This document shows, piece after piece, positions 3,291-28,906 of a stretch of DNA of 29,993 bases. This DNA comes from a virus (lineage: Duplodnaviria > Caudoviricetes): the IMG/VR virus record IMGVR_UViG_3300035102_000171, positions 1 to 29,993 of that record; one strand, given 5' to 3'. Each line of letters opens with the position of its first letter. The first letter of the stretch is position 1. The notes below the pieces were generated by a model. That model did not search any database. It was not told the DNA's origin and saw nothing but the letters and a program-made list of their open reading frames with translations. The position numbers were made by a program, and so were the translations under genes.

Positions 3291-3388
3291 GCCAGAACAA
3301 CTGAGTCACTGAACGAATTAACACCGAGCACAGGAAAGCTCACAGACATGGGTGTTCTGGCGGTTGACAGAGTTAGGAACGAATTAAC

Positions 3389-3730
3389 ATGGAAGCAACG
3401 CTATTTGTGTGCCCGTCAAGGCACAATGGTATGACTCGTGAGGATCTTCTCACAGAGTCGGATGTCAAGCATTTCGTGGAGAATGTGGCCGGCATCGGAA
3501 CAGTTCAGAGAGCTATCAAACTGACCGCAGATGATGGTCATGATGTAGCAGGCAATTGTCGCAGTACATTGAAACATGAGGACATGTGGCAGGTATCTGC
3601 ATCTGCTGATAGTCGTCACGATAATGCAATTCTCGCAGTACCTTATTCTCTTGCATTGCCATCTGACATGGCCGATAGAGCACCGTATATGGACGTAAAC
3701 CAAGACATCGGAGTAGTTACAGAACTCTGA
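3389..3730 (+). CDS. hypothetical protein
   Basis: 113 aa; ATG directly follows CGAATTAAC; T-tract after the stop. Confidence 0.7.
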   Translation: MEATLFVCPSRHNGMTREDLLTESDVKHFVENVAGIGTVQRAIKLTADDGHDVAGNCRSTLKHEDMWQVSASADSRHDNAILAVPYSLALPSDMADRAPYMDVNQDIGVVTEL

Positions 3731-3756
3731 TCCTTTTCTTTTTGGAGTGTTGAAAA

Positions 3757-3978
3757 ATGTCCAATAACGGCAACGAAATAAAGATCAATGAGATTACGAT
3801 CAAGAGGAAAGTAAACCTCGGAAACTACGAGAGTCTGGAAGTGGGTGCCAGCATCAGTCCAAGTTCTGACAGTAGCACTGATGCAACTGTGGACGCTCTT
3901 ATTCTGCAGCTTGATTGTGAGCTGCTCAATGCAGTTGAGAAGATAACAAACCGCAAGGCCGGTGTGGGAGCTGAGTAA
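3757..3978 (+). CDS. hypothetical viral protein
   Basis: 73 aa, GGAGTG RBS; the RKVNLGNYES motif resembles small phage proteins. Confidence 0.7.
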   Translation: MSNNGNEIKINEITIKRKVNLGNYESLEVGASISPSSDSSTDATVDALILQLDCELLNAVEKITNRKAGVGAE

Positions 3979-3979
3979 A

Positions 3980-4201
3980 ATGGAACAGCAATATGTCAGC
4001 TATATCATTGATAGCACTGATCCGGATTATAAGGCCGCATATCTACTCATGAACGACCTGACAAACACAAAGGGCGAGCAGACCGAGTTCATAACTGATG
4101 GTGGGGAGGTTTCACTAGTAGGCCTTGGTAGAGTATCTTATTCTAATGATGATGAGCTGGTCGATAAGTGCAGAGAAGTCATGCAGGAGCTGGGGATATG
4201 A
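3980..4201 (+). CDS. hypothetical protein
   Basis: ATG at 3980, just after the previous stop, is preferred over the track start at 3962. Confidence 0.65.
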   Translation: MEQQYVSYIIDSTDPDYKAAYLLMNDLTNTKGEQTEFITDGGEVSLVGLGRVSYSNDDELVDKCREVMQELGI

Positions 4202-4425
4202 GAGTGACAGTCGACAAGGTGTCGGAGTTCCATCCCGGCAAAGTATTCGATATCACTGACTGGTTCTGCGAGAAGAACGACATCTCGTACAAGGAAGCCA
4301 TTGTAGAACATGAGACTCCGAAAGCCTACTCCATGAGGTTCACGGACGGGGCGCAGCACTGGGTTCCAAAGTCTCTCTGTAAGGAGATAAAGATCGAGGC
4401 TACTACTCTGGAGGGCTATGTATGA
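4198..4425 (+). CDS. hypothetical small beta-barrel-like protein
   Basis: ATGA overlap with the previous gene; HETPKAY...HWVPKS motif. Confidence 0.65.
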   Translation: MRVTVDKVSEFHPGKVFDITDWFCEKNDISYKEAIVEHETPKAYSMRFTDGAQHWVPKSLCKEIKIEATTLEGYV

Positions 4426-4512
4426 GAGCCACTGCCGGAGAACTTCGCAGCAGGGTGTCAGAGGCTAGGATCATGCAGATACGTGGATGGTTCAGGTTCT
4501 ACAGGTGGTAAT

Positions 4513-4743
4513 ATGGTACGCAAAGAGATAATAGAATATCTTGATAGTATCAAAAAGCCTCCAGTCATATTTAATTCAAAATCTGTGGTGCATACTGTTA
4601 ATTCTGATCGCAAATGCAAAAGCTACAATGGAGAGCTTACAGCGAAGCGTCGAGCATGTACTCAGATGTTGAAAGCTAACTGCATACCGGGATGGGATAT
4701 TCAGCCACTTGATAAGAAGCGTTTCATCGCCAGGAGGGCTTAG
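4513..4743 (+). CDS. hypothetical basic protein, possibly DNA-binding
   Basis: ATG after AGGTGG RBS (MVRKEII...); K/R-rich. Confidence 0.5.
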   Translation: MVRKEIIEYLDSIKKPPVIFNSKSVVHTVNSDRKCKSYNGELTAKRRACTQMLKANCIPGWDIQPLDKKRFIARRA

Positions 4744-4891
4744 ATGGTTGCAGTAGGCAGACGCAAGCATAACAGCTATGCAAGAATGTTTTTGAACAGA
4801 TTTAAGAGGACTAATCCAGGCAAATTTGCCTGATATTTTTTTTGAGCGAATCGGGCTTTCCTAAAGCCCATAGTAAAGGAAGGTGTAAAAG

Positions 4892-5350
4892 ATGGGAATA
4901 AAATATTCAGATGAAGATAACTTAATGCCCGTGCTTGCCGTCCGGCAGCCATGGGCTTCACTTATCGAAATGGGCTATAAAACCATTGAAGTAAGGAACA
5001 TGAATACACATTTCCGTGGTCCTATAGCAATCTATGCCAGTAGATCAAAGCCCAGAAAAGCGGATTTGGCATTATTTGAAGACAGTATTGTATTTGCTGA
5101 TGGAGGCGATTGCTTGCCCTATGGTGTGATTATAGCCAAAGCTCAACTATCGGGGTGTAAAAAGCATGTTGATAAGAGTACTTTTGACATCATGAAGTCA
5201 AAGCATCTTGCACCAATGTCATACTATCAACCTGGTAAAACATGTCTGTGGATGCTGAATAATGTGCAAACTATTCAGACAGTTGAGTATAAAATGAATG
5301 GCTCTATTGTATGGGGAAATGTTGACAGAGATCTTATCAAGGTGGTTTAA
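4892..5350 (+). CDS. ASCH domain (PUA-like) protein
   Basis: L.VRQPWASLI..GYKTIEVR, RGPIAIYAS and G.IIA.A.L motifs. Confidence 0.85.
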   Translation: MGIKYSDEDNLMPVLAVRQPWASLIEMGYKTIEVRNMNTHFRGPIAIYASRSKPRKADLALFEDSIVFADGGDCLPYGVIIAKAQLSGCKKHVDKSTFDIMKSKHLAPMSYYQPGKTCLWMLNNVQTIQTVEYKMNGSIVWGNVDRDLIKVV

Positions 5351-5694
5351 TGGGATTCATAAGATGCCGTGACCTCAAGGAAGCAAAGCGCAGGATATCT
5401 GAGCTTAAAAGCAGCATCAAAGAAGTAGATGTTCAAAACAAGAAGATTAAGGATTTGATAGACAATAACAAAGCTCAGATAATGTCATTTCAAGAAGAAA
5501 TATCAGATTTAAATATTGAAATATTTGCTTATGAGGATGAAATAGAAGATAATAAGGAGTGGCTATCAGAAGCAAATGCAGAGCTTGAAAAGTTGCAAGG
5601 ATTGTTTGAGGACAACGAAGTAAGGGCATGTGATAAGCCAAGACCTGAATGTGAGCGTCCTCTAAGTTCATTTCGTCTTGTAAAAAATACCTAA
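5350..5694 (+). CDS. coiled-coil protein
   Basis: Heptad-rich 114-aa ORF with TAATG overlap. Confidence 0.65.
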   Translation: MGFIRCRDLKEAKRRISELKSSIKEVDVQNKKIKDLIDNNKAQIMSFQEEISDLNIEIFAYEDEIEDNKEWLSEANAELEKLQGLFEDNEVRACDKPRPECERPLSSFRLVKNT

Positions 5695-5719
5695 GCTCAC
5701 AAGTAAAGGAAGTTTTCAC

Positions 5720-9380: not shown

Positions 9381-9465
9381 CAGACTGCACCGCCGGGTGT
9401 TTCTTCGTTTCGCATTTTTTATGACTCCTGTCAACTCGTCGTGTTAATTCGTTCATTCGTTGAGT

Positions 9466-9630: not shown

Positions 9631-9835
9631 GATATTTAATAAGTTGTCTTAGTATATAAACATGTCTAGATTTCTAGGAATATAGATATTGTTGTGGTAT
9701 TCTTTACAATTTATATTAAAAAGAAAAAGCCATATATTAAGGTTACTAAGCGTTTATATACTTCCTATTGATTAGTAATAGAATAAGATAATGGAACTTT
9801 TTTTTATTATTATTAGTATTATCACTATCAGTAGA

Positions 9836-10255
9836 GAGGTTTCACAAGAGGTTGCACAGGGGTTGCACAATCTCTTTAACCTATATCATGCAACCTCAAA
9901 AAATTAAAGCTGTTAAAAGTTTCATGGATGTTGTTAACGTTTATGTCACTACAATTATGAGTTCCAGGTTTCATGCAACCTCTGGTTTTTAGTGCAACCT
10001 CTTAAGGTAAAAACGGCATCTATCTCCGTGAAACCTCTACGCATACTAAACTTTTTGGGGTTGCACAGACTTGTCATTTTTTCTATGCAACTACTGTGAA
10101 ACCTATCATGAAACCCTTCTACTGCTATTATTTTCCTTGTTTTTAGGGTATTTTTTCTTTATACTTTCTATTTCGGATTTTAAAGTTTTCATATATACAA
10201 ATTGCGTAACAATTTTATATCAAAATCATAAAGAAAATATTCAAAAGGTTACATG
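9836..10255. repeat. iteron-like repeat cluster, candidate replication origin
   Basis: About 12 copies of (G/A)GGTT(G/T)CA(C/T) in both orientations, e.g. 9836, 9848, 9859, 9887rc, 9965, 9972rc, 9991rc, 10027rc, 10057, 10095rc, 10107rc, flanked by AT-rich non-coding DNA next to mcm. Confidence 0.75.
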
Positions 10256-10277: not shown

Positions 10278-10475
10278 ATGAAAACAATCTTATCTTTGTT
10301 AAAAATGTCAGATAAGGTCACAGATTATGAACCACACTTTGTCGCAACAGTCAATAAAAATGGTTCCGTATATCTTGAGAAAGGTAGAAAGTTCGCAGGT
10401 CGCACTGTACACGTCTACCTGGTCAAAGATCAAGATGATATGACCGAATATGATGACATAGAACGAAACGAATAA
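10278..10475 (+). CDS. small AbrB-like/DUF2080-like DNA-binding protein
   Basis: ATVNKNGSVYL..GRKFAGRTVHVYLV swapped-hairpin pattern; the start could be the second Met. Confidence 0.55.
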   Translation: MKTILSLLKMSDKVTDYEPHFVATVNKNGSVYLEKGRKFAGRTVHVYLVKDQDDMTEYDDIERNE

Positions 10476-10588
10476 CAACAGCGAATTAACACGGAGTTGA
10501 ACCACGGAATGAATAGTGATATCTTTAAAACAAAACCAGGTGAAAACTCCGGCAGGCTCTCATAGGTGTCTGGCGGGGTGAAAGCGGG

Positions 10589-12905: not shown

Positions 12906-13034
12906 TCTTCCTTATATTTTTCTTTAATCGGGTAATATACTTTTTTTATAGACGCATTTAGCATAAACTATAAATAATATTGCTAGTATATAGAGTATTG
13001 CCGAGAGGCGAATTAACACCAGGAACGAATTAAC

Positions 13035-13421
13035 ATGACATTGAACAAGACAACAATTGAGGCACTTGACCGCATGGAAGACAGGATTAAACCTCTGGAA
13101 CAGTCTCTTATCACAAAAAAAGAGCAGCGTGACAGGATGCAGGAAGATATGAAGAGCATCAAGAAAGCTGTCACTGTGGATATACTCGACATGTCAAAGG
13201 ACAAGGATGTAGCCAAAGAACTCGGTCTGACCAACCAGGCAGACAGGGACAGGGCCGTCGAGGAAAGACTTGAGCAGGATCCAGAGTACATGCGCCTAGA
13301 TGCAGCCGTCACAATGCTTGAGAAGGAGATAGCCCTCATGCAGATAGACATCTCATTCGAGCGCAGAAGGTTCCAGGTATGGCATGTTGAACAGCTAAAG
13401 AAGGCCGCAGGGGTGGAGTAA
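13035..13421 (+). CDS. coiled-coil hypothetical protein
   Basis: 128 aa; preceded by a TATA-like site and two CGAATTAAC copies. Confidence 0.75.
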   Translation: MTLNKTTIEALDRMEDRIKPLEQSLITKKEQRDRMQEDMKSIKKAVTVDILDMSKDKDVAKELGLTNQADRDRAVEERLEQDPEYMRLDAAVTMLEKEIALMQIDISFERRRFQVWHVEQLKKAAGVE

Positions 13422-13592
13422 ATGGCAGATATAGGTTATGAAGAGCTAGCTGCACACATACTTGGTGTTGATATAGACGACAACGAAGTATATGACAGCT
13501 TAGAAGACTTATTCTATGAGAAATACGATATTGACCTTTCTTTCTATTTTTTGGGTACACGATTGCAGGTGTGTGGAGTTGTTGGAGGTTGA
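13422..13592 (+). CDS. small acidic hypothetical protein (56 aa)
   Basis: MADIGYEELAAHILGVDIDDNEVYDSLEDLFYEKYDIDLSF...; ATG directly after the previous stop. Confidence 0.5.
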   Translation: MADIGYEELAAHILGVDIDDNEVYDSLEDLFYEKYDIDLSFYFLGTRLQVCGVVGG

Positions 13593-13598
13593 GGGACA

Positions 13599-13850
13599 AT
13601 GAGTCATGACAATGAACCAGAACAAAAACTCTGCACTGTTATCGAAATCAGATACAAAGGTGAAGTGCTGTTCGAAACACAACTTGACGAAATTGTCAAT
13701 GACGCCGATTTGGTTGTTGAGACTGACCTAAAATCAGTACAAGTTTGTCGCAAATGCAAGCGACGGGGGTCATATCACAAGTATCCAAACAAGGGATTAT
13801 GTTGTGATGGTGTTCAGCCGCGGGTTTGTGAGGAGTTGGGGTTCATATGA
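13599..13850 (+). CDS. hypothetical Cys-containing protein
   Basis: 83 aa with CRKC...CC; GGAGG upstream. Confidence 0.55.
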   Translation: MSHDNEPEQKLCTVIEIRYKGEVLFETQLDEIVNDADLVVETDLKSVQVCRKCKRRGSYHKYPNKGLCCDGVQPRVCEELGFI

Positions 13851-14770
13851 GAGTCAGACTCGTAGATGTAGACAGCAAGATCCCAAACCTTGCTTTGATG
13901 AAGCTCTCGGCTTACCACAAAGCACGTGGTGACGAGGTTGGCTTTGGTGTTGTTGATCCAGACAAAGTGTATGCATCTGTGATATTCAAGAAGAACAAGC
14001 ATATGGTTGATGGTCTGCCGTTCTTTTATCCAGGTGCTGACATCGTCGTTGGTGGTTCGGGGTATGACCTCTCAGTTACATTGCCTGATGATGTAGAGTT
14101 GATGAAACCAGACTATGATCTCTATCCAGAGTGTGAATCATCGATTGGGTTCTCTACCCGTGGATGTTTCAGGAAGTGCCATTTCTGCATCGTGCCGGAG
14201 AAAGAAGGCAGGTTCAGGACAGTCCAGCATCCAAGAGAGTGGTATGATGAACGCTTTGATAAGATAATGTTCCTCGACAATAACATCATTGCAGACAAGA
14301 ATTGGTTCTTTGAAGTTACCGACTGGTGCATTGAAAAGAACCTGCAAGTGTGGTTCACACAGGGTCTTGACATCCGACTGCTTGACGAGGAAGTTGCCAA
14401 GCAGCTGCTTCAAATGAAAGTATGGAAAGGGATCTTCTTTGCATGGGATCATATCGAAGATGAAACAAACATCAAAGAAAAGATAGCTCTCCTCAAGGAA
14501 GTCGGGTTCAGTGATTCAAAGCTACGCCGCGATGTTCAGTTTTACGTCTACGTGGATGATGATTCGGAGTATGAATCCGGTGTATATCGTTCACGGGAAC
14601 TCAAGAAACTCGAATGTAACTCTTTTGTGATGTTCAATATCGACACGGAAGCTACCGAGCGGATCAAGCTCCTGCAACGCTGGACTATCCGCAAAGAGCT
14701 CTACTGGACCAAAGACATCGATGACATTGTTCCGAGGAGAATGTGGAAAAAATGTGGGGTGACTGTATGA
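13847..14770 (+). CDS. radical SAM protein
   Basis: TRGCFRKCHFC (CxxxCxxC), FLDNN, QGLDIRL; N-terminal PNLALMKLSAYHK..GD.V domain. Confidence 0.88.
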   Translation: MRVRLVDVDSKIPNLALMKLSAYHKARGDEVGFGVVDPDKVYASVIFKKNKHMVDGLPFFYPGADIVVGGSGYDLSVTLPDDVELMKPDYDLYPECESSIGFSTRGCFRKCHFCIVPEKEGRFRTVQHPREWYDERFDKIMFLDNNIIADKNWFFEVTDWCIEKNLQVWFTQGLDIRLLDEEVAKQLLQMKVWKGIFFAWDHIEDETNIKEKIALLKEVGFSDSKLRRDVQFYVYVDDDSEYESGVYRSRELKKLECNSFVMFNIDTEATERIKLLQRWTIRKELYWTKDIDDIVPRRMWKKCGVTV

Positions 14771-15198
14771 CATCACAATGCCCTTACTCCCTCTCCTGCT
14801 CATCATACTCCCCAGACTCACAAACATGTCAAAAAGAGCCGGGGCCGTATTGTGGGAAGTACCGCAACTTCCTCATGTTTGACATCCGGCACGGCGAGCG
14901 TGCGGAGAAGAGGAGGCGGCTTGTGAGAGCTGTTAAGGTGAGGTTACTGACGGTGTTCTACCTGTCGGCTGCTCTTGTGTTTTCGTATCTGATGACATGG
15001 GTGTCGCTGGAGCCTGTCTACTACCCGGGCCATACATTTGCAATCATTCACGAGACATGTGAGTTCGTGGATGAGTACAAGATTGGTAAGCTGAACTATC
15101 ATCCACAGAGCAAGAATGTCGATTGGGTGAAGTTTGCCCGAGAGATATCTGATTTTTTAGATGAATGGGAGGAGATCACAAAAGATGCCAAGACCTGA
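14767..15198 (+). CDS. hypothetical membrane protein with Cys-rich N-terminus
   Basis: ATGA overlap at 14767; CP....C.......C......C followed by one TM helix. Confidence 0.55.
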   Translation: MTSQCPYSLSCSSYSPDSQTCQKEPGPYCGKYRNFLMFDIRHGERAEKRRRLVRAVKVRLLTVFYLSAALVFSYLMTWVSLEPVYYPGHTFAIIHETCEFVDEYKIGKLNYHPQSKNVDWVKFAREISDFLDEWEEITKDAKT

Positions 15199-15364
15199 GA
15201 AATGGATCCCACAAAAAGACATCTTAGGTCTACAAACACTCATAGAAGAAGGGTGGACCCAAGAACAAATTGCAGAATACTACTCAAAAAGACTACCATA
15301 CAAAGTTGCACAGCGGACTATATCAAAGAAGCTGGAGGAGTTGAAACAAGAAAAAAAGGACTAA
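15185..15364 (+). CDS. small HTH protein
   Basis: EEGWTQEQIAEYY....VAQRTISKKL; ATG at 15185 after GGAGGAG. Confidence 0.65.
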   Translation: MPRPEKWIPQKDILGLQTLIEEGWTQEQIAEYYSKRLPYKVAQRTISKKLEELKQEKKD

Positions 15365-15543: not shown

Positions 15544-15939
15544 GAGAAGTATTTTTACACAAATAATATTTTGCTACTGTCTATGTATGTACGGTTGTAC
15601 AACAACATATATAAAAATATCATGTATGTAAATTGCTAATACACTAGTATGCACCTATGTATAACAAAACTTATATGCATCAAAGTATATTATTGACATG
15701 AATAGTACAATCAATACTTTCACCACGCTAACTCATGCTTAAAATACCACAAATGATATTCTAGTAAATGGTTGCATTGGGTAATCAAAAAAGTAGAGTT
15801 GACAACAGGCGTCGAGTAGCTACCTCAACGCCTGAGCCACGAAACGAATTAACATTCTCTAATCAGCTTTGCTCATATATAAGTATATGCGAAACAATGA
15901 GCATAATTATATATTTTATTGAAGAACATATAACTAGTT

Positions 15940-17505
15940 ATGGAACGAATTAACACCGATAGTCCAGACTCTATCGAGACGGATGACCCAATGACAACCA
16001 TTCAGATTAAATCATCCACTCGTGAGACTCTCAAGCAACTGCCAGGCACGTATGATCAAATACTTGCTACTACTTTTAAGCAAACTTCCACACCGGCACC
16101 GAAAACAAAAGAGGAAGGCGTCGTCTTTGTATCGTCAACCGGGAGCATCTACACCGCTCCAACCATTGACGCAGACAAGATTGTGCAGTTCCTTGAGAAC
16201 CCATATCTCCGGAGTGCTCTAAACAGCTATATGAACATTATTTTCCCTGCACCGGTTGAGGTTGAAGTCACGGGCCCCGACGGCGAGATCGACGAGGACA
16301 TGACAAAACAGTTCAAGAGCATTGTAAACAGTCCAAATATAAGGCTCAACGAGCTGATGAAAAAGGCATATTGGAACCGCATGGCCTTTGGATGTGGGAT
16401 ATTAAACCCTGTCTGGAGGCGTGACGGCAACGAACTACTCCCGTACAATTTCAGGATATTGCCCTCGGATTCTTTCGATACTGCCCCTGATGGCTACGAC
16501 GAAGTCTACAGCAGCATCATGCAGGGCGTTGTTATCAATGACAAGGGCAAGGTCGAAGTCTGGCAGCGCAAGGATAGCATGAGTATGGATACTACACAGA
16601 TTAAGAACTTCTACCTGGTCAAGGATCCTATGGACTCTGGCCTTGCAGGAGATTCCCGGCTTGTTCCACTCATTGCTATTCTGGATATGCTCAAATACTG
16701 CTGGAACACCGAAATGCAGGCATGTAACCGCGCAGGCAGCCCCATAGTTTTTATCAAAGTCAGCAGTCCACAGAAGGGCAACAATAAGAACGGCGGTGTC
16801 GGGGATGTAGAATACGCTAACAAGATCATCAAAAACTGGAGTGTTAACAAACAATACCAACTCAGGGAGAACATGGAGGTTGTTACTGTTGACACAAAGG
16901 GCAGCAAGAATATACTTGATACTATCACGGTCCTGGAGCAAGTAATAAACGACTATTTCTCACCTACAAAGCTCATCAGCAAAGACGGCAGCCATCCCCT
17001 CGGTTCATCAGGTCCTGAGCTGCAACTGCTCAACCAGGCAATTCAGAGTGAGCACAGGTGGCTTGAAGATCAGTTCGAGCAACTTCTCAACAAGTACTTT
17101 GAATATAATGCATACCCCGAAGGCTACCAGGTACACCTGCACATTCCTATCATCGAACCTGACCAGAGCGAGCTACACATCCAACAAGTTGACATGGCTA
17201 TCAAAGGTCAGGCGGTTGACCTGGACGACATCAGGGCAAAGCTCGGATTCGACCCGGCAGATGATGAGAAAAGGGCAAAAATAGCCGAGTTCTGGCAGTC
17301 TCAGCAACCGGCACAGGCCCCCGCCGAGGCCTTACCATTCAAGATGAAAGACCATAATCACGACCACGAGCCGTTAAACTTCCGCAAACATCCATATGTC
17401 AAGGCCATCGAGGAAACTGAAGAACTTATAGACAGTGCTCTCAAGGACAGCCTGGAATCTATGAGCGATAAGATAATGGAAGCTGTCAAGGAGAGTGTTG
17501 AATAA
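15940..17505 (+). CDS. portal protein
   Basis: 521 aa, placed between terminase and the gpF-like gene; FG.G.L...W, G.S.L.PL and IR..LGFDP portal-like motifs. The true start may be ATG 15991. Confidence 0.8.
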   Translation: MERINTDSPDSIETDDPMTTIQIKSSTRETLKQLPGTYDQILATTFKQTSTPAPKTKEEGVVFVSSTGSIYTAPTIDADKIVQFLENPYLRSALNSYMNIIFPAPVEVEVTGPDGEIDEDMTKQFKSIVNSPNIRLNELMKKAYWNRMAFGCGILNPVWRRDGNELLPYNFRILPSDSFDTAPDGYDEVYSSIMQGVVINDKGKVEVWQRKDSMSMDTTQIKNFYLVKDPMDSGLAGDSRLVPLIAILDMLKYCWNTEMQACNRAGSPIVFIKVSSPQKGNNKNGGVGDVEYANKIIKNWSVNKQYQLRENMEVVTVDTKGSKNILDTITVLEQVINDYFSPTKLISKDGSHPLGSSGPELQLLNQAIQSEHRWLEDQFEQLLNKYFEYNAYPEGYQVHLHIPIIEPDQSELHIQQVDMAIKGQAVDLDDIRAKLGFDPADDEKRAKIAEFWQSQQPAQAPAEALPFKMKDHNHDHEPLNFRKHPYVKAIEETEELIDSALKDSLESMSDKIMEAVKESVE

Positions 17506-18131
17506 TGCCTCAAAACGAATCTGACAGGATAGACGAATTCCCTCCCGATCTTGAGCAGGCTGTCGAGTCAGCGGTCGGTATCATGGCATCTGAGCGGCTC
17601 ACGATCCTTGTCAAGAACGCAGGCAAAGCGTACATGGCCGGGGATGTATGGGCGCACAGGAAACTAAAAATAGACATCGACTTCGATGTAGTGCAGCAGG
17701 AAGCCCTGGACTATGTGAAAGCGTACAGGAAGGAAGTACAGGCCGGATACACAACTATCAAAGGCGAAAAAATATACTGGCTCCGGGACCGCACAAAAGA
17801 CGAGCGAAAAAGGATAGTCAATGTTATTGAAAAGGGCATAAAAGAAGGTCAGAGTATCCCTGACATTGCCAAGGCCCTGCGGAGCGAGGTTGATGTTCTC
17901 GAGAGTCAGGCAACCCGTATCGCACGCACTGAGGTAGCACGGATCCAGAACCATGGGGCTATCAACCGATTCAAAAAATACGGGATTGAAAAAGTAAAAT
18001 GGTTAGTATTTGAGCCATGTGAGCTGTGCGCACCATTTGCCAATAATGTTTATGAGATTGATAACCTACCGGATGAGATTCCCGTACATCCTGCGTGCCG
18101 CTGTGCCCTTGCTCCAGTTGTTAACAACTAA
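17505..18131 (+). CDS. head morphogenesis protein (SPP1 gp7/Mu gpF-like)
   Basis: ATRIARTE, KW....C..C and P.HPACRC motifs. Confidence 0.9.
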   Translation: MPQNESDRIDEFPPDLEQAVESAVGIMASERLTILVKNAGKAYMAGDVWAHRKLKIDIDFDVVQQEALDYVKAYRKEVQAGYTTIKGEKIYWLRDRTKDERKRIVNVIEKGIKEGQSIPDIAKALRSEVDVLESQATRIARTEVARIQNHGAINRFKKYGIEKVKWLVFEPCELCAPFANNVYEIDNLPDEIPVHPACRCALAPVVNN

Positions 18132-18148
18132 CAGAGGAGCGAATTAAC

Positions 18149-18400
18149 ATGATAAGCCTATACCTTGCCATCGTTGGGGAGTTGTTCTACCATTACGGCA
18201 CATTCTTCCTTAAAAGGTGGAAAGACCCCACTATTCCGTATGAGTGGGACTATTTCTTCATAATGGTTATTGCTATGATGATCACGTATGCAGCATTCCT
18301 ACATGGGCTTCTCGGGAACATCGTGCATGATATAGCGATAGTGTTTGCGAGCAACAAGGCCGGGAGGGTAATCCTGACAGGGTTAAGAATAATATTATAA
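18149..18400 (+). CDS. small multi-pass membrane protein, holin-like
   Basis: 83 aa with 2-3 hydrophobic helices and a basic C-terminus; CGAATTAAC-ATG start. Confidence 0.55.
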   Translation: MISLYLAIVGELFYHYGTFFLKRWKDPTIPYEWDYFFIMVIAMMITYAAFLHGLLGNIVHDIAIVFASNKAGRVILTGLRIIL

Positions 18401-18429
18401 ATTCATGCAAAATCTTGCTTAAGAACATT

Positions 18430-18446
18430 ACTTATATATGTAACCT
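18430..18446 (+). promoter_or_regulatory. promoter element shared with the capsid operon
   Basis: ACTTATATATGTAACCT, 15/17 identical to 21304-21320. Confidence 0.6.
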
Positions 18447-18600
18447 TCGTCAAAATTAGCAACGGAACGAATTAACATGGCAGCTATGAAACGAATTAGA
18501 CTGTTCTGTACTGGATAGGCTACTCGGTGAGCTTACGCTTTGTTTTTCTTCCACTCATATTGGATTACAACTATCTAAAACCAAAAAATAGAGGTAAAAT

Positions 18601-19181: not shown

Positions 19182-19775
19182 ATGGCAGGGACGATAAAAA
19201 AGAATCTGACCAGAGCCAAGCGGGCAATAACAGGGGCTAAAGCCCCCACGCCTGCGGAAGCTATCAAAAGATGCTCGATTGATATCCGTAAACTCGAATC
19301 CAGGGAGAAGATCGAGAGAAGAGATTATAAGAGACTGATGGCGGAGTATGAGTCGTTGGAAGGCAGAGGGATGACACGCGAGGCTGATGCACTCCTTGAT
19401 AAGATCGTATCAAAGGAAGGCCTGATAAAATCACTGTCTCAGCAGATAGTAGCCAGAAATAACTATGTCAACAAGCTCGAAAAGTGCGAATCACTTGCTG
19501 AGTTCGCTAAAATGAATGATGAGTTTCTTGGACTTGTTAAAGGACTTGAGATGCAGGGCGTGTCGCCAGAAGAGATCGAAAGCAATGCAATCGAGATGCA
19601 GAGTGCAATGGATAAGTTGTCAGATATCACAGAGACTGTAGAGTCCTCTATGGAGGCCGCATATGTTGATGAGGTAAGCAACAACCAGCGCAAGGAAGCT
19701 ATCCGGGCTGAAACTCGTGCAAAGATCAGAGCTGAGAAGGGAGCAATCCCGAAGGATATCAGCCAGGACCTTTAA
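19182..19775 (+). CDS. ESCRT-III/Snf7 (PspA superfamily)-like protein
   Basis: 197 aa; basic N-terminal helical hairpin with G...EA..L turn, acidic C-terminal half (SPEEIESNAIEMQSAMDKLSDITETVESSM) and terminal helix; near an MIT-AAA ATPase. Confidence 0.7.
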   Translation: MAGTIKKNLTRAKRAITGAKAPTPAEAIKRCSIDIRKLESREKIERRDYKRLMAEYESLEGRGMTREADALLDKIVSKEGLIKSLSQQIVARNNYVNKLEKCESLAEFAKMNDEFLGLVKGLEMQGVSPEEIESNAIEMQSAMDKLSDITETVESSMEAAYVDEVSNNQRKEAIRAETRAKIRAEKGAIPKDISQDL

Positions 19776-19803
19776 AGCCGGGACTCTCCGGCTGTTATTT
19801 TTT
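19776..19803 (+). terminator. hairpin plus T-tract
   Basis: AGCCGG-gactct-CCGGCT followed by GTTATTTTTT directly after the stop. Confidence 0.55.
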
Positions 19804-19814
19804 ATGGTGATTAT

Positions 19815-20084
19815 ATGGACTTTGAAGAAGCACTAAAGGAACTTAAATCCGGGAAAAAGATTACAAACAAAAACTGGAATGGAAAGGATATGTATCTGTT
19901 CATGCAGCCCGGATATCTAAACGGAGTTCCAGCTAACGAGGTTACGGCAAAGGGAATGGGTATTCCCGTGGGCAAAGAGGTGAAGGTAGACCCGTACATA
20001 ATGATGGTAAATGCCGACGGCTTTTTGGTGCCATGGACTCCTTCGCAGATGGATCTCTTTTCTCTCGAATGGGAAGTAGTTTAA
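19815..20084 (+). CDS. DUF2829/Tad2-like protein (candidate signal-molecule sponge)
   Basis: MDFEEALKELKSGKKI....WNGKDMYL...PYI.......VPWTPSQMDLFS.EWEVV family signature. Confidence 0.85.
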   Translation: MDFEEALKELKSGKKITNKNWNGKDMYLFMQPGYLNGVPANEVTAKGMGIPVGKEVKVDPYIMMVNADGFLVPWTPSQMDLFSLEWEVV

Positions 20085-20185
20085 AATTAAAATGAGTTGA
20101 CGGGATGGAAGGGTAGTGATATTCTCACCACCTTTCTATTACTAAATTAATTAATGTTGGTTATATACTTTCTGACGAGGTTCTT

Positions 20186-21277
20186 ATGAATTATACAGCA
20201 GAGGCAGAGGCAAGGGGCTATGCACAGGCGGCGAGCAGTCTTGAGAAAGATGATCCGCACAGGGCAAGTGAACTGTATGCAGAATGTGCAAAACTCTACA
20301 CTCAGATAGCCAACGACCCCGAAACTGACAACCCCGAGTACTATAAGCAAAGAGCAGAAGATTATCAGGACTTGTCAAAAAGAGTGCTACCACGCAGCAT
20401 TAACGAGGGTAATGCAAAGAGCATTAAAGAAAATCTGGTCATGGCTCAAATACCTGACATATCATTTGCAGATATAGGAGGCCTTGAGGACATAAAGCGG
20501 GAGATCAGGAAGGCCATTATCTATCCATTTTCACACAAGCACATCTATGATTATTACGGCAAGAAGGCCGGACAGGGTATTCTAATGTACGGCCCCCCCG
20601 GATGTGGTAAAACCATGATGGCAAAAGCCGCAGCACATGAGAGCGGGGCTGCATTCATCAACGTCAGGACATCGACTATCATGTCACGATATGTAGGCGA
20701 ATCCGAGCAGCATATCAAAGAAGTGTTTGAGGCTGCCAGGGAGCACGAGAAGGCAATCATATTCTTTGATGAAATAGACAGCATTGCCTCTCGCAGGAGT
20801 GAGTCGGAGGATTACATTAAGCGAGTTGTGAACGAGCTACTAACGCAACTGGACGGCGTGGATACATCAAATGATAACTTTCTTGTTATCGCTGCCACAA
20901 ACACCCCGTGGTTAATCGATCCGGCTTTCCGCAGGCCTGGAAGATTTTCTAAACTACTACTTATTCCAGAACCTGATCATCCTGCACGGGAAGCAATTCT
21001 TTCAAACAATTTCAAAAACAAACCGTTCACTGGAATACATGCGGCTGATATTGCAGCAATGACAGCAGGATATTCCGGGGCAGACCTTACAGCACTATGT
21101 GAGGATGCTCTTGACCTCCCTCTCCACGAAGCTCTGAGCACCGGCAACACCCGGCCGGTAAACATGGGGGATATCATGCAAGCACTCGATGGCCGGCAGA
21201 GCTCAACAAGATCATGGTACATAGAAGCAGAGCGAGAACTTGAGAAATATGGTGAGAAAGACATATTCACTTTTTAG
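20186..21277 (+). CDS. Vps4/CdvC-like AAA+ ATPase with N-terminal MIT-like domain
   Basis: About 65-aa three-helix N-terminus (A..YA..A...EK.D...A.ELY...A..Y...YKQRAEDY); F.DIGGL, GPPGCGKT, IMSRYVGESE, FFDEID, ATNTPW.ID.AFRRPGRF, GYSGADL; TTATATA at 20161 suggests a leaderless start. Confidence 0.85.
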   Translation: MNYTAEAEARGYAQAASSLEKDDPHRASELYAECAKLYTQIANDPETDNPEYYKQRAEDYQDLSKRVLPRSINEGNAKSIKENLVMAQIPDISFADIGGLEDIKREIRKAIIYPFSHKHIYDYYGKKAGQGILMYGPPGCGKTMMAKAAAHESGAAFINVRTSTIMSRYVGESEQHIKEVFEAAREHEKAIIFFDEIDSIASRRSESEDYIKRVVNELLTQLDGVDTSNDNFLVIAATNTPWLIDPAFRRPGRFSKLLLIPEPDHPAREAILSNNFKNKPFTGIHAADIAAMTAGYSGADLTALCEDALDLPLHEALSTGNTRPVNMGDIMQALDGRQSSTRSWYIEAERELEKYGEKDIFTF

Positions 21278-21303: not shown

Positions 21304-21422
21304 ACTTATATATGCAACTTACATGATACAATTGTTAAGAGCAAACGCAAGGATTTTGTGGCTGCTTTGGTCTGAAACGAATTAACAACTACCTGAACGA
21401 ATTAACATAGAAGCGAATTAAC
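21304..21422 (+). promoter_or_regulatory. late promoter and 5' UTR with three CGAATTAAC copies
   Basis: ACTTATATATGCAACTT at 21304; motif at 21378, 21398 and 21414, the last abutting the ATG. Confidence 0.7.
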
Positions 21423-22424
21423 ATGGATGAACAGAAGGTCATCACCGAGCCTAGACTGTTTTTGCATAGCGAAGCTAGCCCACACTCCACACATGATGCC
21501 ATAGTTCAGACTCTCGACCGAAATGTCGGAGGCGTACCACTTTCTACATCGATGTTTGAATCCAGTCTCAAAGACTGGGATGGCATTCCCCTTGTGTTTG
21601 CTCAAGACCATCCTGATATGGAACTATATGAGAGGGATCCCGAAGCAGCTCTGGAAGCTGTCAAAGGTCGTCATGTAGGTACATTTTCAGACCCCGCTAT
21701 CAAGAAAGAAGGCCATCCAAGGCTGTGGGGTAAGTTCAATTTTACTGACCCGGAAATGAAAGAGTTATCTGATGAGGGGAAACTGTCTCTATCTACTGCT
21801 TTCTGGGCTTTAAAACAAAATGGTGAGTATGTCGGTACAAGACCACAAAATATCCTGGTGTTCCAAGAAACAGAGCGCGACCTCCCTCGTGATCTTGGTA
21901 CCGGCATACTCAACAAAGATTCTCATAATTCAAATCAACTAAATCAACTAAATGGTGAAAACATGCCAGACGAAACGAATGACAAACTAGTTTCCACCCA
22001 GCTCGTGGCTGTTCAGAACAAGTATGAAGCAGCAGTTCAGGAACTGGAGACTACAAAGAAGGAACTCAAATCCGAGCAGGTCAAAAATAAGACTCTCGAA
22101 GATGAGAACGCAGCAAAGGACGAGAAAATAAAAGCACTTGAGGAAGAAAACCAGACTTTCAAACAGAAAGAAATCGACGGAAAGTGGGTAGCTCTCAAGA
22201 ACAAGTTACCAAAGGGACTAGTACACGACGAAGCAGCAACCAAAGCCTCCAGAGAAGAGTGGGAGAAAGACCCGCAGGCATTCATGTTCAAGGTCGTCGA
22301 TGCTATGAGCAAGCAGCCAGACGGCACAGAAGAAGAAGGGCAGCAGTTCAGGCAGCATGGCAGGACTGAAGACGATGTCCAGGTAGATAAGGACCTGGAA
22401 GAAATGGGGATCAATCTGATTTAA
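21423..22424 (+). CDS. prohead protease/scaffold fusion
   Basis: Globular N-domain (W.G.PLV...HP, VG....P, LSLS) followed by a long acidic coiled coil; upstream of capsid genes. Confidence 0.75.
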   Translation: MDEQKVITEPRLFLHSEASPHSTHDAIVQTLDRNVGGVPLSTSMFESSLKDWDGIPLVFAQDHPDMELYERDPEAALEAVKGRHVGTFSDPAIKKEGHPRLWGKFNFTDPEMKELSDEGKLSLSTAFWALKQNGEYVGTRPQNILVFQETERDLPRDLGTGILNKDSHNSNQLNQLNGENMPDETNDKLVSTQLVAVQNKYEAAVQELETTKKELKSEQVKNKTLEDENAAKDEKIKALEEENQTFKQKEIDGKWVALKNKLPKGLVHDEAATKASREEWEKDPQAFMFKVVDAMSKQPDGTEEEGQQFRQHGRTEDDVQVDKDLEEMGINLI

Positions 22425-25443: not shown

Positions 25444-25477
25444 ACAAAAATAAACATGAACGGAGCGAATTAACAAC

Positions 25478-26200: not shown

Positions 26201-26220
26201 TACTTTCTTATTTCTTTTTT
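26201..26220 (+). terminator. oligo-T terminator
   Basis: TACTTTCTTATTTCTTTTTT. Confidence 0.5.
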
Positions 26221-26240
26221 GATATAGGGAGCGAATTAAC

Positions 26241-26693
26241 ATGGTAGCAGCAACAGAAACAGCCGCAACAACAGCAAATAGCCAGACCGGACAGAAAGAG
26301 GATCCGAGACTTTCACAGAAATTCAATGACATCCAGAAAGATGATGAGGCCAACCTCACAATAGCTGAGAGGCTAATCCTTGCATCACATGAGCGTGAAT
26401 TTGAGTTTGAGTGGTGTGGTGTACCTATCCGGGCAAAAGTACCCACTGGAACCGAATCTGATACGATGCGTAGGCTATTCGATGGTATCCTCAAGGGTAA
26501 GAGCAGCGACATAGAGAACGACCTGTTTGAAGTCTATGGCATGGTAGCGGATCATGTTCTGGACGATTCAATAGACGTGGATTTCCTCAAGAGGCGAGAG
26601 ATAGGCCACGGGTTTGTGGCTGCATTCATAACATTGGCAACCCGCGCAGACCTTGAGCCTTCCGGGGCGGTCAAGAATTTTCGCATTATCTAA
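26241..26693 (+). CDS. tail assembly chaperone (short form)
   Basis: Between tail tube and tape measure genes; ends AAT TTT CGC ATT ATC TAA. Confidence 0.75.
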   Translation: MVAATETAATTANSQTGQKEDPRLSQKFNDIQKDDEANLTIAERLILASHEREFEFEWCGVPIRAKVPTGTESDTMRRLFDGILKGKSSDIENDLFEVYGMVADHVLDDSIDVDFLKRREIGHGFVAAFITLATRADLEPSGAVKNFRII

Positions 26694-26820
26694 TTACGGA
26701 AAAGAATTAGGCAGACGGCTGCACTATTTCGGCATTACTCTCGAGTACTTGAGAAACTGCAGCCTGGACGACAGAACGTATTATTTGAACGCTGACATAT
26801 CATCGAGCTGGCAACTATGA
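26679..26820 (+). other. programmed +1 frameshift extension of the chaperone
   Basis: In-frame TTT CGC at 26679-26684; the +1 frame has no ATG and is open (ALSNYGKELGRRLHYFG...SSWQL) to TGA at 26818-26820, overlapping the tape measure ATG. Confidence 0.7.
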
Positions 26821-28319
26821 CAGGTGAATCGTTAGGAGAGCTGTACGTTGACCTTGACCTACGGAAAGGTACATTTGATCGCAAAGTAGACCAATCCAAG
26901 CAGAAAATATCGAGCCTTGACGGTGCAGCCGCTGGCCTGTCAAGTACCATGGTTGGTCTTGGTGCCGTGGGTCTGGCTGCTGCCGGGGCTGCAATGGTCG
27001 GCATAACGAAACGGGCAATCACGCTAGGTAGTGAGCTGCAGGAGATAGACAGCAAGTTCGAGGCAGTGTTCAAAGGTGAGGCAAACGATGCGGAAGCATG
27101 GGCTACTTCGTTCTCAAACAGTGTAGGTAGATCCGAAAAAGAGCTTAAGAGCTTCCTGTCAACATTCCAGGACACCTTTGTACCCCTTGGATTCTCTCGT
27201 AAAGAGGGTGCCGAGATGTCAAAGACCCTCACTCAGCTTGCTGTTGATATGTCAAGCTTCAACAATAAGAGCGAACCTGAGACAATAGCAGCCCTGCAGT
27301 CTGCTCTAGTGGGTAATCATGAGACTATGCGCCAGTACGGTGTCATAATCACCCAAGCCACACTCGACCAGGAACTGCTCAACATGGGTATTGAGGGCGG
27401 TGTACGTGCTGCATCTGAGCAAGAGAAAGTGCTTGCCAGGCTCAATATCATTATGGAAGGTACAACTGACGCTCAGGGTGATGCTGTGCGGACATCTGAT
27501 GAGTTCGCTAACATGTCACGAGCGCTCAAGGGCACGCTCACAGACATGATGGCAGAAGCAGGTCGGAAAGAGTTGCCTGAACTCACGGAGGTCCTTGTAG
27601 ACTTCGATAAATGGGGCAAATCTGGAGGATATAACAACATTCAGGACTTCTTTGATGACGTGGCCGGTGGGGCATCGTTTGCTGCTAAAGGCGTATCGTT
27701 GCTCACACAGACATTTGGCGATCTGTACGGGGTAGTAACTACACAGAAAATGGAAGTGCCTGAGGGCATGGTTCCAACGGGGTATGATCCAACCGATCCT
27801 TCGACGTCCTGGATGTATTCCAGCGGTATGATGCCAGATATGACTGTCTGGAATAGCATGAGCGATAAAGAAAAACTAGACGCCGCAGAAGCTTTTCAAG
27901 AGGCACAGGCTGCAGCCCGTGAAGAAATCGAAGGTCAGAACGATGAGCTGGAAAGACAAAAGGAGCTTCTAGAAGAGAACAACAGTGCAATTCCTGATTG
28001 GGCTGGGAACTCCGATTATATTCGTGACAGGCTTGATGAGTTAGGGATAGAGAAAGGTACTCCCGGCAATCCAAATACAAAATACAATATAAGCAGTTTG
28101 TGGAATCAGGAAGATGGAAATCTGAATACCGATGCCGGTGAGGCTTCAAAAGAAGTAGTTACACAAGAAGTAAATCAGGATAACCACTTCGAAATAACTT
28201 TCAATGTCGAGAATGTTGAAACCGGAAGTATGGGAGAGTTCCAGGATACAATGTCAGATGGAGTGCAGCAGGCAATAGCCAGTGTAGGCAATCCTATTCG
28301 GGTGCCTAGGGATAGGTGA
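26817..28319 (+). CDS. tail tape measure protein
   Basis: LGELYVDL N-terminus, Ala/Gly-rich, LAVDMSSFNN...ALQSALVG.E..RQYG motif. Confidence 0.88.
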   Translation: MTGESLGELYVDLDLRKGTFDRKVDQSKQKISSLDGAAAGLSSTMVGLGAVGLAAAGAAMVGITKRAITLGSELQEIDSKFEAVFKGEANDAEAWATSFSNSVGRSEKELKSFLSTFQDTFVPLGFSRKEGAEMSKTLTQLAVDMSSFNNKSEPETIAALQSALVGNHETMRQYGVIITQATLDQELLNMGIEGGVRAASEQEKVLARLNIIMEGTTDAQGDAVRTSDEFANMSRALKGTLTDMMAEAGRKELPELTEVLVDFDKWGKSGGYNNIQDFFDDVAGGASFAAKGVSLLTQTFGDLYGVVTTQKMEVPEGMVPTGYDPTDPSTSWMYSSGMMPDMTVWNSMSDKEKLDAAEAFQEAQAAAREEIEGQNDELERQKELLEENNSAIPDWAGNSDYIRDRLDELGIEKGTPGNPNTKYNISSLWNQEDGNLNTDAGEASKEVVTQEVNQDNHFEITFNVENVETGSMGEFQDTMSDGVQQAIASVGNPIRVPRDR

Positions 28320-28321
28320 GA

Positions 28322-28768
28322 TCACCTATAAGCTCCTACATATCCAATTGCCACATTGTCCGCATCTAAGAAATCATCTGAATTGATAAGATATACAAAA
28401 CTTGTTTGGTAATCTGCGTCTGGATAGATATTAACAGTTTCGTGTGCAATGTTTTCACTATATGTGGCCTGGTGTGCCGAATACTCTATCCCATCTATCA
28501 AAACTTTCCAATTATGAGGATTAGTATTTATGAGTGTGTCCCCGGTGTTCTTGATATGGACATCCCATATAAGAAAAACATGGCCTTCCGGAGCTTCATA
28601 TCTACCTATCTCAAAAACCGGCGTGACATTCTGTTCAAGATATTCAATGTTTTGAACTTGATCTGATGTGCTGTTAGTTGTATTGTTCTGCTCCGCAGAA
28701 TCCCCAACACAGCCTGAAAAAGCAAGCAAGGAAAACAAGATTATAAAAGTTAGATATCGTGATTTCAT
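28322..28768 (-). CDS. lipoprotein, DUF4352-like (Ig-like)
   Basis: Signal peptide with lipobox AFSGC; A.EG..FLI..V.IKNTG....NP..W motif; opposite strand to the tail operon. Confidence 0.75.
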   Translation of the reverse strand: MKSRYLTFIILFSLLAFSGCVGDSAEQNNTTNSTSDQVQNIEYLEQNVTPVFEIGRYEAPEGHVFLIWDVHIKNTGDTLINTNPHNWKVLIDGIEYSAHQATYSENIAHETVNIYPDADYQTSFVYLINSDDFLDADNVAIGYVGAYR

Positions 28769-28906
28769 ACTAAAATATATGATGCCCGATGCAATATATA
28801 TTATCCGCTGTATTTTTATCTTGAACTAGTGATAAACATATAAAGGATAAACGCCAATATATAAACACGAATTAACACCCATAAACTACCCCACGAAACG
28901 ATTAAC

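Follow-up and report, generated by a model that had tools for sequence, protein, structure and literature searches.

We find that the window (the whole 29,993-nt stretch of viral DNA analysed) probably encodes a trans-acting antisense small RNA (sRNA), predicted at 68 nt, that would pair with 15 sites on the virus's own mRNAs and mask ribosome loading across the lytic programme.

Results

A 10-nt repeat at gene starts

The first-pass annotation had described a strand-specific 9-mer marking gene 5′ ends. All 16 of its exact coordinates were correct and lie far above chance (shuffle mean 0.27), but the true unit is 10 nt long: CGAATTAACA is present in 16/16 copies, versus 0.05 expected (shuffle mean). 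Allowing one mismatch in the 9-mer gave 21 matches versus 5.5 expected; thus, a relaxed search brings in background only. Fifteen of the 16 copies are on the sense strand and mark the leader or start of early, replication, head, and tail genes (Table 1). The sense orientation ascribed to every copy fails for the one at 15845, which serves as template for a predicted RNA on the minus strand, and copy 15946 is inside the portal ORF, 3′ of ATG 15940. That portal site is unchanged in runs X3, X6, X7, and X8, and an alternative portal ATG, 15991, is CTA in X6 and X8.

The A of an ATG is the last base in 6/15 non-template copies (binomial p ~5e-4), as had been noted, although ATG 18477 opens a 13-codon ORF only. 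A start codon is at most 2 nt away from seven exact sites and from the variant, CGATTAACA at 28899–28907, which was also present as described and whose last base is the A of an ATG; one more site covers portal codons 3–6. Most of the remaining exact sites share a leader with start-codon sites, and those at 9442 (adjoined by a 1-mismatch copy at 9451–9459) and 10482 are further upstream of starts. Besides the variant, three strong near-sites are at or just 3′ of ATGs, and ATG 21963 is likely a nested scaffold start. The leaders around the sites are A-rich and unstructured. The core was rightly called unlike a Shine-Dalgarno sequence, but GGAG directly precedes copies 18140, 25466, and 26232; TATA boxes do lie upstream of copies, at a distance that varies. 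The marked units are early, replication, portal, head, and tail; no 10-mer sites were found at the leftward RHH-type genes, the DUF4352 gene, or the Snf7-like/Tad2/AAA genes.

It is hardly credible that the repeats are scars of recombination or duplication with no regulatory role. The X6 contig does join 15854 to 18464 across two copies (the side is 21 nt and unreliable), but the core is invariant between variable flanks, keeps a start-codon register, and precedes core head and tail genes.

Table 1. Predicted RNA gene, pairing sites, and associated elements (window coordinates)
Feature	Position	Strand	Description
Predicted small RNA gene, 68 nt	15787..15854	-	5′ end 15853-15855; seed, single-stranded extension, hairpin, U6 tract
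Seed UGUUAAUUCG	15845..15854	-	exact complement of 10-mer; first 9 nt unpaired in predicted fold
11-bp hairpin	15806..15834	-	contains U.G pair existing on minus strand only
U6 tract, predicted archaeal terminator	15787..15792	-	sequence
TATA box CTTATATA	15876..15883	-	29 nt before first base of seed
Convergent promoter (TATA 15670) and 14-codon ORF	15670..15742	+	ORF frame kept by compensating indels in X6/X8
Target 1	3314..3323	+	leader of first rightward early operon; duplex of ~23 nt, the strongest at -31.4 kcal/mol
Target 2	3380..3389	+	last base is A of ATG 3389
Target 3	9442..9451	-	between RHH-like gene and MCM helicase (likely ATG 9380)
Target 4	10482..10491	+	3′ of ORF 10278-10475, amid cluster of partial copies
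Near-site without 10-mer	10502..10514	+	over ATG of 18-codon ORF; -22.0 kcal/mol
Target 5	13009..13018	+	promoter-proximal leader
Target 6	13026..13035	+	last base is A of ATG 13035
Target 7	15946..15955	+	portal gene codons 3-6; predicted duplex reaches over ATG 15940
Target 8	18140..18149	+	last base is A of ATG 18149; GGAG upstream
Target 9	18468..18477	+	last base is start A of 13-codon ORF
Near-site	18483..18498	+	within 13-codon ORF; -23.7 kcal/mol
Predicted short transcript	18461..18552	+	TATA 18431-18438, two sites, U-rich end; fold z -2.48
Target 10	21378..21387	+	head-operon leader
Target 11	21398..21407	+	head-operon leader
Target 12	21414..21423	+	last base is A of ATG 21423 (likely protease/scaffold gene)
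Near-site	21970..21980	+	just 3′ of in-frame internal ATG 21963, GGTG upstream; -21.4 kcal/mol
Target 13	25466..25475	+	2 nt 5′ of ATG 25478 (likely tail tube gene); GGAG directly upstream
Target 14	26232..26241	+	last base is A of ATG 26241; T-rich tract precedes; GGAG directly upstream
Target 15	28868..28877	+	promoter-proximal; pairing limited to core, -15.5 kcal/mol
Variant target	28891..28907	+	core minus one base; A of ATG 28907 last; -22.9 kcal/mol

One copy is the template of a predicted small RNA

An antisense TATA box at the right distance, a strong fold, and a U5+ tract accompany copy 15845 only (1/16). None of the three features was found at any other copy, and the next-best fold was −15.1 versus −24.5 kcal/mol. 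The minus strand of 15787–15854 folds with −24.5 kcal/mol (z −4.15) and the plus strand with −14.9 (z −1.98), showing that the predicted fold is strand-specific. No other short transcript behind 39 TATA-like sites was as structured, and a fold this strong together with a U tract occurred at 3 loci only in 11,968 scanned windows. By sequence alone, the unit has the attributes of an sRNA gene (own promoter and terminator, non-coding, 50–500 nt), with a TATA box at −29, a U6 tract, a length of 68 nt, and no AUG within it. Rfam matched nothing at the locus, up to E 5.

Four TATA boxes (9660, 3212, 10893, and 15670) are 28–30 nt before an ATG. Read as leaderless genes, these pairs place the RNA 5′ end at 15855–15853, bracketing the first base of the seed. 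The TATA context CTTATATATG is common to the sRNA, head-operon, and 18431 promoters; the sRNA may thus be co-expressed with its targets. A 26-nt stretch spanning the TATA box matches an intergenic stretch of genome G249 at 25/26 positions. A sigma-70 promoter scan was discarded as unsuited to an archaeal virus. Read-through from the convergent 15670 promoter would yield a full antisense copy of the sRNA. We infer a role for this copy, and one for the 18461–18552 transcript as a candidate sponge for the sRNA.

The repeat had been interpreted as an RNA-level cis element of a viral regulon. This is still the best-supported reading, but the predicted partner RNA gene at copy 15845 had been overlooked and protein partners proposed instead. 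A translational enhancer had also been suggested, along with a protein-binding, processing, or antitermination site; because one 10-mer copy is a predicted antisense RNA gene, we judge masking of ribosome-loading regions, and hence repression, likelier than enhancement.

Predicted pairing extends beyond the seed

The predicted sRNA exposes an accessible seed complementary to multiple distant mRNAs near their starts. When each copy was taken as the guide, none paired better on average with the remaining 15 than copy 15845. Its mean duplex was −21.0 kcal/mol, versus −16.3 with shuffled flanks (0/2000 as good) and −16.0 with a shuffled sRNA extension (1/2000 as good); restricting the shuffle to positions −5 to −16 gave −18.9 (0/2000 as good). 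The opposite orientation gained far less (−16.1 versus −14.65, reached by 24/2000). Owing to the similarity among sites, most other copies used as guides also beat shuffles (z to −6.8), and the purine flank may be partly Shine-Dalgarno sequence. Wobble-type changes were not in excess by plain count (30/120 cells versus 7/30 for the opposite transition). At the 28899 variant, 8 further bases exactly match the sRNA template, a longer extension than that of any exact copy.

The same sRNA and sites might instead guide cleavage at the duplex end, yielding mRNAs that are leaderless or devoid of a Shine-Dalgarno sequence, with translation activated or reshaped. We consider this unlikely. The exact AUG register at 6/15 sites plus the variant would suit it, as would the final A of the 10-mer, which is invariant even if the predicted RNA starts at G15853 and leaves that A unpaired. 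Two papers describe antisense-directed processing for halovirus phiH (PMC4284463) and 5′ UTR processing that increases translation in a methanogenic archaeon (PMC5499594). However, at eight exact sites the duplex does not end on an AUG, and at the portal gene and the internal scaffold start the AUG precedes the site and would be lost on cleavage.

We also see little probability in a DNA-level reading, in which a viral repressor recognises the 10-mer as an asymmetric site and the hairpin at copy 15845 is incidental. The sites are asymmetric, transcription-oriented, and in short intergenic spaces, as described for the stoperators of mycobacteriophage L5 (PMC9283540). Their invariant core, the small RHH/HTH-like proteins that the virus encodes, and the retention of a site in X3/X7 without the sRNA alongside would fit as well. 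This reading nevertheless leaves unexplained why a TATA box, a hairpin, and a U tract are antisense to exactly one copy, why that unit is invariant, and why the extended complementarity is orientation-biased; the compensated 28899 variant and the AUG register are likewise unaccounted for. Neighbouring copies are spaced by 16, 17, 20, 66, and 101 nt, with no common helical phase.

Host and relatives

CRISPR spacers point to Methanolobus zinderi as the host: its array targets this virus with two perfectly matched spacers (PAMs CCT and CCA). No integrase was recognised in the window. Type I guides pair strictly in the 5′ seed and more loosely at distal positions, Cascade leaves position 6 unread, and a crRNA-like guide is recognised by a repeat-derived handle and a PAM at its targets. 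The host array and the resemblance of the pairing pattern to type I guides could suggest that the viral RNA steers host type I Cascade to DNA sites. We give this next to no credence: CCN was present at 5/15 sites only, no repeat-like flank or 5′ handle was found, the hairpin would fall inside the spacer, and position 6 of the 10-mer is invariant.

The earlier proposal that a viral or host protein recognises the 10-mer in mRNA, as a translation enhancer or antitermination signal, appears quite improbable. In its favour are the sense orientation, the unstructured A-rich leaders, sites located 3′ of T-rich tracts, and the viral gene for an ASCH-domain protein. Against it, the motif was enriched in none of 401 Halobacteriota genomes (highest count 11 copies, versus 9 for the control), and the host genome (G374) had 2 copies versus 4 for the control in that scan and no such regulon. 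The 9-mer had 6 copies in the host, versus 11 for the control; their duplexes were weak, 4/6 were inside long ORFs, and 0/6 were directly before an ATG. No exact complement longer than 6 nt was found in host 16S rRNA, leaving a 16S-pairing enhancer role of the 10-mer unsupported, and in the part of host 23S rRNA covered (1500 nt downstream) the longest was 7 nt. A protein site also leaves the antisense unit unexplained.

Runs X6 and X8 represent a relative ∼10% different around the predicted sRNA gene. They have no listed difference in 15787–15854, 14 substitutions and 6 indels in 15707–15786, and 10 substitutions in 15922–15938; base 15855, directly beside the invariant 68 nt, is changed. Conservation is patchy, and further invariant blocks of 32–52 nt exist nearby. 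Seed/target covariation was not seen, the single relative that covers the sRNA gene being identical there. In X3 and X7, the promoter region and target 15946 are retained, but the sequence left of 15872 is different, and there the anti-motif is absent at +29 within the 30 letters visible.

Searches of 56 other loci and 101 host-related genomes revealed no sRNA homologues, and the window was the sole match of a single-sequence covariance model. A promoter 20-mer search found nothing. Among 69 IMG/VR loci with the 15-mer, the 17 listed had no second 10-mer and the other 52 had a single 8-mer core. Fifteen doublet loci were rejected as motif-bearing viruses (repeats tandem or coding), and the sole 18-mer match (L152) was unrelated. 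The 10-mer was present in 0/35 capsid-protein loci of distant relatives (partial genomes). Of 67 sets of at least 9 kb (partial genomes), three contained the 9-mer, once each, and the highest score of any dispersed repeat was 9.5, versus 16.1 here. A generic scan for TATA box, anti-repeat, and U tract in L085–L120 (partial genomes) gave no convincing analogue; the L104 and L085 repeats were mostly tandem or coding. Viral contigs yielded no relatives in the MCM and single-capsid scans, and the protein encoded at 3389–3730 had one homologue and no informative atlas match.

Discussion

Taken together, these results suggest the following scheme. Host RNA polymerase would make the sRNA from its host-type promoter. 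The 10-nt seed would pair first, and the duplex would grow to 14–23 nt with G.U pairs, hiding the ribosome-binding and AUG region, often at an operon's leading gene; polarity would then silence the genes behind it. The sRNA could thus repress the lytic programme across the genome, in favour of a dormant, carrier, or immune state, or act as a timing brake. Relief might come, speculatively, from the two-site 18461–18552 transcript or from convergent transcription from 15698. A bolder version is possible, although we would not favour it: an RNA-only master repressor, in which one viral RNA, rather than a protein, silences the replication, head, and tail operons through all 15 perfect seed sites, provides dormancy and superinfection immunity, and is relieved by the sponge. 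If true, stoperators would have an RNA equivalent in this virus.

To our knowledge, very little work has addressed how methanogen viruses control their genes. The guide and its 15 targets are legible straight from the genome, which makes a small reporter test in genetically tractable Methanosarcina feasible; if true, pairing by the sRNA would offer a compact programmable silencing scaffold for methanogens. Among open-access full texts, we found no archaeal virus with a trans-acting sRNA directed at multiple targets; the phiH cis antisense RNA was the sole case from such viruses.

SviR, an sRNA of the Vibrio cholerae phage satellite PLE, is element-encoded and trans-acting, like the predicted sRNA, and has antisense homology to leaders of several of its own ORFs; it reduces translation and changes processing (bioRxiv 10.1101/2022.04.08.487710; PMC7567579). 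SviR is described as bacterial, 210–300 nt long, processed, helper-phage-induced, and equipped with two seeds and flanking inverted repeats, whereas here we predict a primary 68-nt RNA of an archaeal virus with one 5′ seed and 15 exact 10-nt sites. The phage P4 CI RNA is a small viral immunity RNA that pairs with repeated complementary sequences (PMC4825925), and P1/P7/N15 antisense RNAs are named beside its type (PMC7567579). It is processed from the transcript it controls and has two sites (seqA and seqC) at one locus; our RNA would start from a promoter of its own, predicted on the opposite strand, and has sites across 25 kb. The locus matched no Rfam family, and, judging from the sequence, the RNA would not be processed from a regulated transcript as in the P4 CI/P1 C4 family.

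In Methanosarcina mazei, trans sRNAs mask ribosome-binding sites, also within polycistronic mRNAs (PMC5867862). These RNAs (sRNA41, sRNA154, and sRNA162) come from the host's family and have the masking role proposed here, but they are cellular and metabolic, and no sequence or structure match to them was found. The halovirus phiH Tant antisense RNA serves immunity in an archaeal virus and acts on an early lytic mRNA (PMC4284463). Tant is cis-encoded, with one transcript; the RNA predicted here would act in trans, with a short seed and many targets.

Cluster A mycobacteriophage stoperators, more than 20 asymmetric, transcription-oriented sites that silence the phage genome (PMC9283540), are DNA read by a two-domain repressor, and no such protein was recognised here. 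The Start-Associated Sequences (SAS) of cluster K mycobacteriophages are asymmetric, with 11–19 copies in one orientation a few bases 5′ of starts; their function was left open in 2011, an RNA or protein partner being suggested (PMC3203893). Our sites agree in copy range, single orientation, and distance to starts. They differ from the 13-bp SAS, which contain AGGAG and precede non-structural genes only, in being 10 nt with a core not Shine-Dalgarno-like, in also preceding head and tail genes, and in having an RNA as candidate partner. The predicted sRNA thus offers a testable idea for the SAS repeats and, if true, a rule for unexplained start-associated repeats: the odd copy would be the partner RNA gene.

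A repeated 10-mer marks gene starts

A 9-mer had been placed at 16 positions in the first-pass annotation, and on recount all of these positions proved correct. The motif extends to 10 nt (CGAATTAACA) in 16 of 16 copies, against 0.05 expected. Relaxing the 9-mer to one mismatch gave 21 matches against 5.5 expected and gained only background. In the 15 non-template copies, the three bases 5' of the 10-mer are purines at 43 of 45 positions, and the final base of the 10-mer is the A of an ATG in six (p ~5e-4). A seventh copy lies 2 nt upstream of an ATG, and the variant at 28899, which has one base deleted, likewise ends on an ATG. Sites occur at units for early functions, MCM, portal, head and tail, with no more than three in any one leader; none lies at the leftward RHH-type genes, the DUF4352 gene or the Snf7-like/Tad2/AAA genes. 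It is unlikely that the 10-mer is a host element: the motif is not enriched across 401 genomes, the six copies in the likely host genome (G374) are weak ones, and the complement in host 16S is at most 6 nt.

The odd copy lies in a predicted small RNA gene

On its own strand the remaining copy, at 15845, opens no gene. The minus strand there has a TATA box and, downstream of it, a predicted 68-nt sRNA made up of the anti-motif, a single-stranded stretch, a hairpin of 11 bp and U6 (see table). This RNA folds at -24.5 kcal/mol (z -4.15) with its first 9 nt unpaired, whereas the plus strand of the locus folds more weakly (-14.9 kcal/mol, z -1.98). When all 16 copies were modelled as antisense genes, only copy 15845 had a TATA box, a U tract or a fold below -15.1. 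The predicted sRNA would be the most structured short transcript among those behind 39 TATA-like sites, and a comparable fold with a U tract was found at only 3 loci in 11,968 windows. Four of the genome's TATA boxes are followed by an ATG at a distance of 28-30 nt; if these four are leaderless genes, the sRNA would begin at 15855-15853. The TATA spacing agrees with dRNA-seq of Methanolobus psychrophilus, in which promoters lie ~19-22 nt from the start (PMC5378194). The head-operon and 18431 promoters have the same TATA context as the predicted sRNA. A DNA site resembling the stoperators, the repressor sites of cluster A phages, would fit the orientation of the copies (PMC9283540) but leaves the antisense unit unexplained.

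Features of the window and of two mycobacteriophage genomes
Feature	Position	Strand	Basis or source
TATA box CTTATATA	15883-15876	minus	sequence
Anti-motif UGUUAAUUCG	29 nt from TATA first base	minus	sequence
Predicted sRNA	15854-15787	minus
Near-site without core	at ATG 10509		duplex prediction
Near-site without core	within 13-codon ORF at 18477		duplex prediction
Near-site without core	after in-frame internal ATG 21963		duplex prediction
Opposite-strand SAS	L153:30635-30647 and L154:31871-31883		Angelica and Anaya
RHH + DUF536-like coiled-coil protein	1823-2224	minus
Likely replication origin	9826-10127
Radical-SAM region	13335-15335
Portal N-terminal segment	15991-16070
Snf7-like and AAA genes	19182-21277
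Tiny ORF, 14 codons	15698-15742
Tiny ORF, 18 codons	10509-10565

Predicted pairing of the sRNA with the sites extends beyond the core

Predicted duplexes between the first 24 nt of the sRNA and the 15 sites averaged -21.0 kcal/mol. The controls gave -16.3 kcal/mol with the flanks shuffled (0/2000), -14.9 with other intergenic DNA (0/2000), -18.9 with positions -5 to -16 alone shuffled (0/2000) and -16.0 with the RNA extension shuffled (1/2000); the reverse orientation gained only 1.4 kcal/mol (24/2000). The best duplex (-31.4 kcal/mol) forms at site 3314, in the leader of the first early unit, and at variant 28899 eight further exact bases offset the missing core base. At a cut-off of -21.4, roughly the best 1% of random 60-mers, 10 of 56 hand-curated starts were retained, and all 10 have an exact, variant or near site. 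The methionine of the internal ATG 21963 precedes a scaffold-like part and is also found in four distant relatives. Two cautions apply: wobble-type changes are not in excess by plain count (30/120 versus 7/30), and most other copies also rate well as guides because the sites resemble each other.

How might such an RNA act? A duplex over the ribosome-binding region and AUG, or over the first codons, would block initiation, and polarity, a route to downstream silencing, would shut off the genes behind a masked start. The sRNA would then be a repressor of the lytic programme; the short two-site transcript 18461-18552 and the convergent promoter at 15670 are speculative off-switches. A block of this kind has been reported with Methanosarcina sRNA41 and sRNA154 (PMC5867862). 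Cleavage guided by the RNA to the end of the duplex would account for sites that stop precisely at the AUG, and halovirus phiH offers a precedent (PMC4284463), but the portal and scaffold sites suit this reading poorly. Judged from sequence, the virus probably encodes an antisense sRNA that represses a 15-site regulon by masking; that the predicted sRNA has any role at all is more likely still. A Cascade guide is very unlikely on grounds of PAM and handle.

Conservation of the sRNA locus

A single relative, seen in sequencing runs X6 and X8 of one study, covers 15658-15990 and differs there by 30 substitutions and 7 gaps. The block 15787-15854 has no listed difference, 15707-15786 has 14 substitutions and 6 indels, 15922-15938 has 10 substitutions and base 15855 is altered; both ends of the invariant block thus coincide with the predicted sRNA ends. 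By our own arithmetic the chance of a 68-nt clean run at ~10% divergence is near 1e-3, but the variation is patchy and further clean blocks of 32-52 nt occur. Against the sRNA model, runs X3 and X7 retain 15872-15957, including target 15946, without the anti-motif at +29. Left of 15872, behind the same minus-strand TATA, their sequence differs from the window and possibly encodes a different small RNA; a search of the window for its 10-nt complement gave no exact match. In an X6 contig, a match of 21 nt that stops at the sRNA seed (15854) is joined to site 18464; this junction may reflect a further long target in the relative, or a second copy there.

Distribution and known counterparts

The system turned up in this virus and its close kin alone. 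The 10-mer occurs in 0 of 35 capsid-protein loci, a comparable dispersed repeat in 0 of 67 larger sets, and the RNA model matched none of 56 other loci or 101 host-related genomes, nor does any Rfam family match the predicted sRNA. Provirus-like regions in Methanospirillum stamsii (L120) and in genomes G403, G423, G189 and G135 have capsid or tape-measure genes in common with the virus; the motif system is absent from them.

The predicted sRNA would work like the PLE satellite sRNA SviR (bioRxiv 10.1101/2022.04.08.487710), P4 CI RNA (PMC4825925) and Methanosarcina sRNAs. In the available text, a 2025 phage sRNA review deals for the most part with antisense RNAs that have one target and with sRNAs directed at the host (PMC12197685), the MetSV transcriptome paper lists coding genes alone for its virus (PMC9694453) and PMC12360218 holds nothing bearing on such a system. 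The literature searched yielded no like system in an archaeal virus. For the Start-Associated Sequences (SAS) of cluster K mycobacteriophages, four phages are described as having a single copy on the opposite strand (PMC3203893). We found it at the equivalent place in two of four genomes examined, the K1 phages Angelica and Anaya, where a predicted hairpin holds the anti-SAS in its loop; the right-hand parts searched of Pixie and TM4 have none. The opposite-strand SAS could possibly be a partner-RNA gene, which we offer as a lead only.

The virus and its likely host

The window is the entire virus record and may be incomplete; there is a contig of 31,718 nt. Runs of other studies, from oil fields and the subsurface, contain DNA nearly identical to that of the window. 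The host is likely Methanolobus zinderi, because G374 spacers match the window and G374 proteins are identical to those named M. zinderi. The G374 CRISPR array has 107 repeats; four stretches of it match by BLAST (37/37, 36/36, 26/26 and 29/31), and when up to 7 mismatches are allowed, 3 of its 106 spacers match.

The window encodes MCM helicase, terminase, Mu F-like, capsid, cement, tail-completion, tape-measure, Tad2, ASCH and AAA ATPase genes; the names portal, protease/scaffold, tail tube and chaperone come from position and weak synteny with relatives. The virus likely carries an ESCRT-III/Vps4 pair. Its Snf7-like gene (19% to a host Snf7-family protein, E 0.012 pairwise) and CdvC/Vps4-like AAA ATPase (51% to the host copy) mirror a neighbouring pair in G374 (locus L129), with Tad2 between the viral two. 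Beside the MCM gene, roughly a dozen repeats of the GAGGTT(G/T)CA type, lying in either orientation, together with an inverted repeat of 42 nt mark a likely replication origin. The RHH/DUF536-like protein (atlas scores 0.91-0.93) is a plasmid-type regulator; together with MCM, the origin-like region and the lack of a recognised integrase in the window, it hints at plasmid-like maintenance.

Inspected by eye, the portal N-terminus (MTTIQIKSSTRETLKQL...), which has no family match, resembles part of a ribbon-helix-helix antitoxin that has been fused onto the portal protein. The radical-SAM region is probably common to other elements, since its summed contig depth is higher in runs X3, X4 and X9 and it has 66-70% protein matches in host-family genomes. 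In the related virus L086, a promoter-like block with a 26-nt perfect palindrome is duplicated at 924 and 8489. Finally, the two tiny ORFs share the same beginning, ATGAATAGT, and the frame of the 14-codon one is preserved in X6/X8 through compensating indels.
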